DNA from: Promethearchaeota archaeon
Lineage (GTDB): Archaea > Asgardarchaeota > Lokiarchaeia > Sigyniarchaeales > SOKP01
Assembly (NCBI GenBank): GCA_016930515.1
Contig: JAFGGO010000147.1
Span: 1 to 17,543, forward strand
Direction: 5' to 3'
Length of the DNA stretch: 17,543 bases
In this document: positions 10,307 through 11,260 of the stretch, piece by piece
Layout of the letters: each line of letters opens with the position of its first letter
How positions within the stretch are numbered: the first letter of the stretch is position 1
Program-made: the position numbers and the translations under genes
The notes under the pieces: model-generated
Seen by the model: only the letters and a program-made list of their open reading frames with translations
What the model was told of the DNA's origin: nothing
Database searches by the model: none

Positions 10307-11260
10307 TTAGAAATTTGAATAGATCATGAATTTTTGATCGGAACCGATTGAATAGATCTCGAACTTGGAGCCTTTTTTCGTCGTGCACATCAGTTGTATC
10401 ATAGGAAACAAATATATCTGACTTTGAATCGTTGCGTCCTTATCTTTTTCGTACATTCTATAGTCGCTCTTGGCGTCTCCAATGGTCTTGCTTATTTTCT
10501 TGTTGTAATATCCCAAACTCGCTTCCGCCTTTGATTCAAGTTCTTTAAATTCGGTAAACTTGATTCCCTCGACCTCTTCAATGAGCTGATGGAGGTCTTT
10601 CTCGATTTCCTTTTCGTATTTCGTTTGAGCGCTGCTATGAAGCACGGGAATTCCCGTAACAACGGTTTTAAACGGAACGGGGAGAGTTTGATACTTGTAA
10701 AGGTTCTTGTATCCCTTGCAGTCCTTGCATTGAACTTGTAAATTACCCGATCCATAACATTCAGGACACGAATATTGGAATGTTTTCTTTACTTTTTTCT
10801 GTTCTTCGCCTTCGATGACTTGCCATGTTTCGGTTATCTTCCCTTCCCCCTTGCAAGAGCACCTTTTTTCCGTGTATCCTTTTCCATTACAGGTTTTACA
10901 CGGAACGGGGGAGATTGAATCGAACATTGGCACGCTATCGTTACCGTTCCAGTTGTCCTTATCGATCTTTCCAGCTCCTTTAAAGGAATAAAACTGTACC
11001 TTGCTCAAGCGAGGCGCCATGACCACGGTCTCGTCTTTATTCGAAGAAAGGCCCACGGTTTTCTTAATCGAAAAGTATATGGCCGCTTCTTTCATGTTGT
11101 CCACGACATATTCCGCAGCTGAAATGGCGTCTAAGGAAAAAACCGCTCCTTTGGTTCCAAATTGCTTTTCAAGTTTCTTTCGGTCTTTTCGGGCGGCTGA
11201 ATTCTTCCATTTTTCAAAAATATCGTCCAAATTAGGTGTTTTAATTCTGACATCTGGCAA
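10307..11260 (-). CDS. DnaJ-type Cys-rich zinc-finger protein without J domain, SSUH2-like
   Basis: CKTCNGKG, CSCKGEG, CPECYGSG and CKDCKGYK repeats; no HPD motif. C-terminal domain resembles SSUH2. TTG start with AAGGT upstream. Confidence 0.75.
   Translation of the reverse strand: MPDVRIKTPNLDDIFEKWKNSAARKDRKKLEKQFGTKGAVFSLDAISAAEYVVDNMKEAAIYFSIKKTVGLSSNKDETVVMAPRLSKVQFYSFKGAGKIDKDNWNGNDSVPMFDSISPVPCKTCNGKGYTEKRCSCKGEGKITETWQVIEGEEQKKVKKTFQYSCPECYGSGNLQVQCKDCKGYKNLYKYQTLPVPFKTVVTGIPVLHSSAQTKYEKEIEKDLHQLIEEVEGIKFTEFKELESKAEASLGYYNKKISKTIGDAKSDYRMYEKDKDATIQSQIYLFPMIQLMCTTKKGSKFEIYSIGSDQKFMIYSNF

Follow-up and report, generated by a model that had tools for sequence, protein, structure and literature searches.

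A J-domain-less DnaJ-type zinc-finger protein conserved in Asgard archaea has an SSUH2-like layout

Cysteine-rich (CR) domains of the DnaJ type are known as protein-binding, not nucleic-acid-binding, modules. In type I DnaJ/Hsp40 proteins the CR domain (PF00684; PDB 1exk, 1nlt, 7zhs) carries CxxCxGxG motifs in the order two, insert, two. Plant BSD2 (PDB 6ekb) and Bacillus anti-TRAP (PDB 3lcz/2bx9) are stand-alone fingers of this type, 50–130 amino acids (aa) long and scarcely more than the finger, that bind protein without activating Hsp70. For eukaryotic SSUH2 (C3orf32, fls485), the 'protein SSUH2 homolog' of animals and plants, published descriptions go no further than a putative chaperone carrying four CXXCXGXG repeats (PMC2838759, PMC7818184); it is linked to dentin dysplasia, with no known mechanism (PMC7818184). 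We found no literature linking SSUH2 to archaea. Here we analyze a gene for a DnaJ-type zinc-finger protein in a 17,543-nucleotide (nt) stretch of a Promethearchaeota genome (contig JAFGGO010000147.1, hereafter the window; coordinates in Table 1). A preliminary description had proposed that this gene encodes an SSUH2-like protein and might be an unrecognized eukaryotic signature protein.

The gene is real and strongly conserved in Lokiarchaeia-type Asgard archaea. With a probability of roughly 0.55, we consider its product a zinc-dependent protein-binding module belonging to an Asgard-restricted family, SSUH2-like in build and neither the archaeal counterpart nor the ancestor of SSUH2. A word-indexed search retrieved 200 significant homologues. 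The 120 listed among these are 314–331 aa long with 65–96% identity, and each named one is from an Asgard archaeon. An exhaustive phmmer search of 1.84 billion representative proteins found only 82. The family is restricted to Asgard archaea in all sources that give names. The genome of the window holds one copy only (match E = 3.1e-93). At E <= 1e-3, 214 of the 400 Asgard genomes searched have a match to the family profile, though for some of the weakest the fingers alone are probably responsible. Among longer proteins (390–2000 aa), a profile search matched nothing but fingers.

The members of the family occur in a short and a long form. The short form (~945 nt, four Cys motifs) is present in 116 of the 134 genomes of the window's own family (f1), and forms of ~1050 nt are carried by other Asgard families. 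The long form, from the Loki, Jord, Hod and Hermod lineages, is ~345–365 aa in length and 33–42% identical to the window protein. In a 43-sequence alignment (A1) it has eight Cys motifs, presumably making four zinc sites, as against four motifs in the short form. Long-form proteins such as P0126, P0152 and P0147 have the same N- and C-terminal domains as the window protein and align with it over the full length; the short form is without equivalents of their motifs 2–3 and 6–7, a difference of ~40 aa. The short-form clade of the window is nested among long forms in a quick maximum-likelihood tree (SH-aLRT 100), which argues that the short form is the derived version. One genome of the same class has a tandem pair of long-form copies (Table 1). 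The family is among the better conserved uncharacterized proteins of Lokiarchaeia-type Asgards. Finding its partner and role is worthwhile because the protein is single-copy, 65–96% identical in its short form and found in the majority of genomes of the window's family.

The window protein is soluble and basic (36 kDa, pI 8.9, 46 Lys), and there is no hydrophobic segment in it (maximum KD19 0.96). Its four Cys motifs are CKTCNGKG (residues 121–128), C-SCKGEG (134–140), CPECYGSG (165–172) and CKDCKGYK (178–185). Motif 2 is a CxC (C-S-C, residues 134–136, in the region of window positions 10859–10861) as the result of a one-residue deletion common to the window protein and its nearest relatives P0002 and P0003; it is CxxC in every other family member. 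An AlphaFold2 model based on A1 (pLDDT 88.1) begins with a long helix, which is followed by long strands and the finger hairpin; after the finger come another hairpin, three helices and, at the C-terminus, three strands. The N-terminal helix and the C-terminal strands form one alpha+beta core, since VIA matches span residues 10–317. A cystatin/PepSY-like fold, with a helix packed on an antiparallel sheet, is a tentative candidate for this core. In A1 the Cys ligands and G170 are invariant, as is G306 on the terminal strands, the sole such residue outside the fingers; P9, W18 and V110 are near-invariant. The four DnaJ-type repeats, the flanking strings VPMFDS and CKDCKGYKNLYKYQTLPVPFK and the C-terminal string given in the preliminary description are every one present in the translation, and the J domain is missing as it had stated.

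Based on both sequence and fold, the best match of the finger region is the CR domain of type I DnaJ/Hsp40. The only Pfam match is DnaJ_CXXCXGXG at residues 121–184, at 23.5 bits and under the cutoff of 32.7; most close homologues have a precomputed PF00684 match. The CR region of the model matches the fold of the DnaJA2 CR domain with a probability of 0.99, and Foldseek hits in the PDB and among viral models were confined to CR domains. By analogy with DnaJ, the hairpin presumably has two zinc sites. The remainder of the protein is different from DnaJ. No J domain was matched in Pfam or NCBIfam at E <= 10 and the translation has no HPD tripeptide; the G/F region is also lacking, and no Pfam match to the C-terminal DnaJ_C beta-sandwich domains was obtained. 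The finger is instead embedded in an unrelated alpha+beta core, and motif 2 is CxC in the window's lineage. NCBIfam DnaJ equivalogs match residues 116–195 only, with 12–16 bits against cutoffs near 550. Profile matches to the stand-alone fingers are weak (E = 0.02–0.03 for the BSD2 and RtpA (3lcz) chains and 0.6 for anti-TRAP 2bx9) and far under the family thresholds; for BSD2_CRD (PF25436) the match has E = 7.3 and 7.3 bits, against a cutoff of 27. These small proteins have no flanking domain in common with the window protein. Three other matches were set aside: Vps28 on the N domain (E = 0.0096), in a stretch modelled partly as strand, and weak eS17 matches (E > 0.1) were both taken as chance, and PF27659, which is found on some homologues and was considered as the SSUH2 family, is actually CHP02642, a faint and irrelevant finger match.

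For comparison with eukaryotes we used the 'protein SSUH2 homolog' (P0262, 358 aa) of a fish, Sinocyclocheilus grahami, retrieved in an indexed search that started from two divergent long forms. Its last finger reads CKTCKGQGKLLCFIKLKITWK and its C-terminal end ...QTIELISITRVHYAWNEKTHIYFVYGTEHKVY; the SSUH2 motifs given in the preliminary description are roughly right and occur in the same order in this real sequence. SSUH2 and the window protein are both without a J domain and have four CxxCxGxG-type motifs mid-protein. Both have a VP 9–10 residues upstream of the first Cys: in the window protein V110-P111 stands 10 residues ahead of C121 and is aligned by hhalign with the VP of SSUH2, although the His of the SSUH2 VP(H) feature is absent. 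Past the last CxxC by 20–21 residues there is in both a beta-strand with an aromatic-K, and then a helical stretch leads to terminal strands with a conserved Gly. L10, L16 and the aromatic-K at 20–21 after the last finger are in register with fish SSUH2, and the Gly in the penultimate C-terminal strand also corresponds. The two are of similar size. However, the fingers of fish SSUH2 are contiguous, whereas those of the window protein are split as two, a hairpin and two. The F...W(K/R)N feature after the SSUH2 fingers and the C-terminal HY.W...G(T)...YP feature were not found in the window protein, which instead has ...LPVPFK, with its F aligned to the W, and ...IGSDQKF; G306 alone corresponds to the C-terminal motifs.

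Closer relatives of SSUH2 were found elsewhere. P0202, a JGI metagenome protein of 369 aa that first surfaced as a marginal finger match in the exhaustive phmmer search, aligns with residues 83–350 of fish SSUH2 (BLASTP, 27% identity over 299 aa, E = 4e-33). The pieces of fish SSUH2 outside the fingers match it as well (pre-finger E = 1.6e-10, post-finger 1e-8; range 1e-6 to 1.6e-10). We consider P0202 prokaryotic because its contig is gene-dense and the gene stands beside methylmalonyl-CoA mutase genes. P0202 has a C-terminal membrane helix, and the mutase genes that it adjoins are split. When the 400 Asgard genomes were searched with a profile of fish SSUH2 and P0202, the best matches formed a separate, membrane-anchored family of 356–417 aa (Table 1). 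The member at locus L056 aligns with P0202 over 285 aa (BLAST, E = 4e-16), and the family retains the post-finger HWKN.HV motif of SSUH2, which is absent from the window family. Fish SSUH2 and P0202 also share the motifs LE.FTE.R, PY.G, W(K/R)N, HY.W and a terminal YP, and the window family has none of these. As judged from sequence, the membrane-anchored Heimdall/Loki family is closer to SSUH2-like proteins and P0202 than the window family is. This membrane-anchored family is absent from the genome of the window and sporadic in general, with ~4 of the 400 Asgard genomes and one named Heimdallarchaeota protein (UCG03412.1).

Outside the Asgard archaea, no full-length SSUH2 homologue was found in 401 Pseudomonadota genomes (fish SSUH2 as query) or 301 Halobacteriota genomes (P0202 as query), which gave fingers only, or in 301 Bdellovibrionota genomes (fish+P0202 profile), which gave fingers and a multi-finger family. 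Apart from ordinary DnaJ genes, a scan of genome contigs with fish SSUH2 brought up a single multi-finger protein, from Halobacteriales, and two scans of metagenome contigs (A5; P0202) had no matches. The Bdellovibrionota multi-finger proteins (409–590 aa; Table 1) have ~14 CxxC motifs between N- and C-terminal domains and share the same general build of a finger rod in a core.

The similarity of the window family to SSUH2 was then considered region by region. Based on hhalign, A1 matches fish SSUH2 with a probability of 96.7, restricted to VP and the fingers, and fish SSUH2 aligns with Asgard family members at fish residues 166–242 only. Hidden Markov models (HMMs) of the Asgard N and C domains have no score on fish SSUH2. 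Ungapped block profiles (position-specific scoring matrices) are not significant (p = 0.04–0.5), with the post-finger and last-strand blocks having their best positions at or near the expected places. Conversely, the non-finger pieces of fish SSUH2 detect nothing among the Asgard family members (best E = 0.08–2.3). A whole-length hhalign comparison of A1 with fish+P0202 is colinear from the fingers to the C-terminal strand (probability 98, E = 3e-13, 148 columns), and P0202 alone gives a similar result; these scores are dominated by the fingers. Full-length alignability that includes the N and C domains, seen between fish P0262 and P0202, does not extend to the window family. The single-sequence AlphaFold2 model of fish SSUH2 (pLDDT 33.5) was too poor for a model-to-model comparison of folds.

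We also compared the domains by hhalign with the fingers removed, using a 5-sequence SSUH2-like profile unless stated and column shuffles as the control. The matched N domains score 12.5 against 9.2 ± 1.6 for shuffles (p = 0.033) and the matched C domains 16.9 against 10.8 ± 2.3 (p = 0.025), both in tests of low power and both landing in the expected register. A crossed control of N against C, made with natural sequences, scores 14.8, near the matched scores. In a power check, fish+P0202 against the membrane-anchored Asgard family scores 17.3 (N) and 12.0 (C) despite the fact that these sets are linked by BLAST. The finger-free test is thus underpowered, because a pair known to be related scores no better. 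Overall, the order and register of the SSUH2-like motifs proposed in the preliminary description hold, but similarity outside the fingers lacks statistical support: what can be measured ends with VP plus fingers, and the matched domain scores of 12.5 and 16.9 stand little apart from the 14.8 of the crossed control. The SSUH2-like layout is genuine, and we regard homology past the fingers as unproven.

How the layout arose can be read in several ways. That the Asgard family is a true eukaryotic signature protein, the direct archaeal counterpart of SSUH2 with Asgard–eukaryote sisterhood, would fit the common layout and length (345–365 aa in long forms against 358 aa in the fish), the motifs in register and the restriction of the family to Asgard archaea. 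However, fish SSUH2 has a far closer full-length match in P0202, whose contig is gene-dense and prokaryotic, the HWKN.HV motif is retained by the membrane-anchored Asgard family and not by the window family, and the exhaustive single-sequence search returned no named eukaryote. Since P0202 and the membrane-anchored family are closer to SSUH2, sisterhood is unlikely for the window family, and we give the signature proposal very little credence. Of the equally close and widespread homologues elsewhere that the preliminary description had named as a sign against it, closer ones do exist in P0202 and the membrane-anchored family, but the ~1000 bacterial and haloarchaeal genomes searched had none and gave no sign that they are widespread. 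Alternatively, the window family might have only the mobile DnaJ-type CR finger in common with SSUH2, set in an unrelated alpha+beta domain, with the resemblances of the flanks being due to chance and beta-strand periodicity. The silent domain HMMs, the block scans, the fish non-finger pieces that match P0202 and miss the Asgard members, and the crossed control that falls between the matched scores are all as such convergence would predict. Against it, three separate segments have their best or near-best positions where a colinear register would put them, the finger occupies the same place in the layout, and the finger-free test has low power. We regard convergence as possible, though doubtful. 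A similarly tentative reading is that all of these proteins, namely the soluble Asgard proteins and the membrane-anchored ones of the Heimdall/Loki family as well as eukaryotic SSUH2 and prokaryotic proteins like P0202, belong to one ancient superfamily of J-less proteins with a finger in an alpha+beta core, of which the soluble Asgard form would be a lineage-wide housekeeping zinc-rod chaperone. If this is true, the soluble Asgard form would be the first functional handle on the human disease gene SSUH2, and, should structure confirm the remote link, members from archaea and bacteria could be simple models of SSUH2. For eukaryogenesis the result is mainly negative: a resemblance of motifs is not by itself sufficient ground for listing the gene among eukaryotic signature proteins.

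In the reading that we prefer, a protein-binding module of an Asgard-restricted family, a DnaJ-type CR hairpin of four Cys motifs would be inserted into a small alpha+beta core to which the N-terminal helix and strands contribute together with the strands of the C-terminus. As in DnaJ, two zinc ions would be expected in the hairpin, motif 1 pairing with 4 and motif 2 with 3. Lacking a J domain, the protein cannot activate Hsp70 in the manner of DnaJ. The rigid zinc rod and conserved core may together serve as a zinc-dependent protein-binding module, acting as a holdase, an assembly factor or an adaptor, as for other J-less CR-domain proteins. The four-motif form would be a derivative of the older eight-motif form, largely confined to the window's family, and the whole family may be a very distant cousin of SSUH2-like proteins without being the archaeal counterpart or ancestor of SSUH2. 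The zinc stoichiometry and the protein-binding role are inferred from what is known of the DnaJ CR domain, BSD2 and anti-TRAP.

Several points weigh against this proposal. The protein-binding role is a prediction, as are any partner, substrate or activity; the Pfam score of the CR domain is sub-threshold; the CxC of motif 2 and the lack of the last Gly in motif 4 could make the zinc geometry deviate; and the cousinship with SSUH2 is based on motif register and an hhalign extension that the finger-free tests failed to confirm. The gene neighbourhood could also mean nucleic-acid-related work. The zinc-finger gene is divergent from a conserved 53-aa open reading frame (ORF) and from a Hel308-like helicase whose tail is a DUF5814 domain, and this order of helicase, small ORF and divergent zinc-finger gene is kept in three loci (L001, L028 and L034) that represent two families of one order, where identity of the zinc-finger protein is just 35%. 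Together with the pI of 8.9, this would suit a Lys-rich zinc protein that works with the 53-aa protein and the helicase. The arrangement is, however, not kept at 8 further loci, which belong to other families and classes, such that the synteny may be plain inheritance within one order, and CR domains bind protein rather than nucleic acid. We therefore consider a helicase-linked role improbable. A complex prediction for the zinc-finger and 53-aa proteins had a score of 0.00 and gives no verdict.

The zinc-finger gene starts with TTG at 11260–11258 and has its stop codon at 10307–10309 on the minus strand. The TTG start is taken as right because homologues share the N-terminus MPDVRIKTPN. As the preliminary description had noted, the codons are GC-richer and a TATA element is duplicated: GC content at third codon positions (GC3) is 0.484, the highest among the 17 ORFs of the window (most have 0.29–0.39; overall GC 0.355), and the TTTTATATAG element occurs twice upstream. 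These elements are a putative promoter, and the gene is probably expressed well, strong expression being what codon use and elements suggest. No tRNA or Rfam family was found in the 770-bp spacer.

Table 1. Features of the zinc-finger gene, its neighbourhood and related proteins at other loci
Feature	Coordinates	Strand	Details
Whole gene, J-domain-less DnaJ-type zinc-finger protein, 317 aa	10307..11260	-	ORF list and translation
N-terminal part, aa 1-120	10901..11260	-	Helix 11-34, strands 52-68 and 76-80, pre-finger segment to V110-P111
CR zinc-finger hairpin, aa 121-185	10706..10900	-	Motifs 1 and 2, 28-aa beta-hairpin insert, motifs 3 and 4
C-terminal part, aa 186-317	10310..10705	-	Post-finger hairpin 186-209, three helices 216-271, three terminal strands 282-315
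TTTTATATAG element, copy 1, TATA-box-like	11352..11361	-	-101 from start codon; sequence read and regex
TTTTATATAG element, copy 2, TATA-box-like	11326..11335	-	-75 from start codon; sequence read and regex
Conserved small ORF, 53 aa	11721-11882	+	AT-rich spacer; no family match
Hel308/Ski2-like SF2 helicase, 887 aa	12031-14694	+	N-terminal zinc-finger region, C-terminal DUF5814
Enoyl-CoA hydratase ORF, overlap with acyltransferase gene end	9328-9376		49 nt, from listed GTG start
Paralogous adjacent ORFs	6510-7238; 7255-8013	-	Weak DUF4140 N-terminal matches
ORFs that follow	5842-6507; 4883-5671	-	No family match; GC3 0.45-0.48
PLP-dependent enzyme (PALP)	2865-4118	+	Fused to C-terminal winged-helix (PadR/HxlR-like) domain
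Tandem pair of long-form copies (L031)	G128:C5:1338591-1340780
Membrane-anchored SSUH2-like family	L055 585-1835; L056 1219-2289; L057 1036-2289	-; +; -
Bdellovibrionota multi-finger proteins	L039 301-2064; L050 953-2182; L051 1351-3123	-; +; +	Two with membrane tails

The 53-aa protein ends in ...IK.AFGF and carries two Trp that do not vary. The version in L001 is 64% identical, others occur in L028 and L034, and in every case the ORF lies a short way upstream of the DUF5814 helicase, on the same strand. On its other side, the zinc-finger gene is convergent with an enoyl-CoA hydratase gene, whose real start is probably an ATG downstream of the listed GTG. Elsewhere in the window, the two paralogous ORFs and the two that follow them, which have unusually high GC3, may constitute a small operon (4883–8013). 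The PLP-dependent enzyme is an enzyme–regulator fusion.
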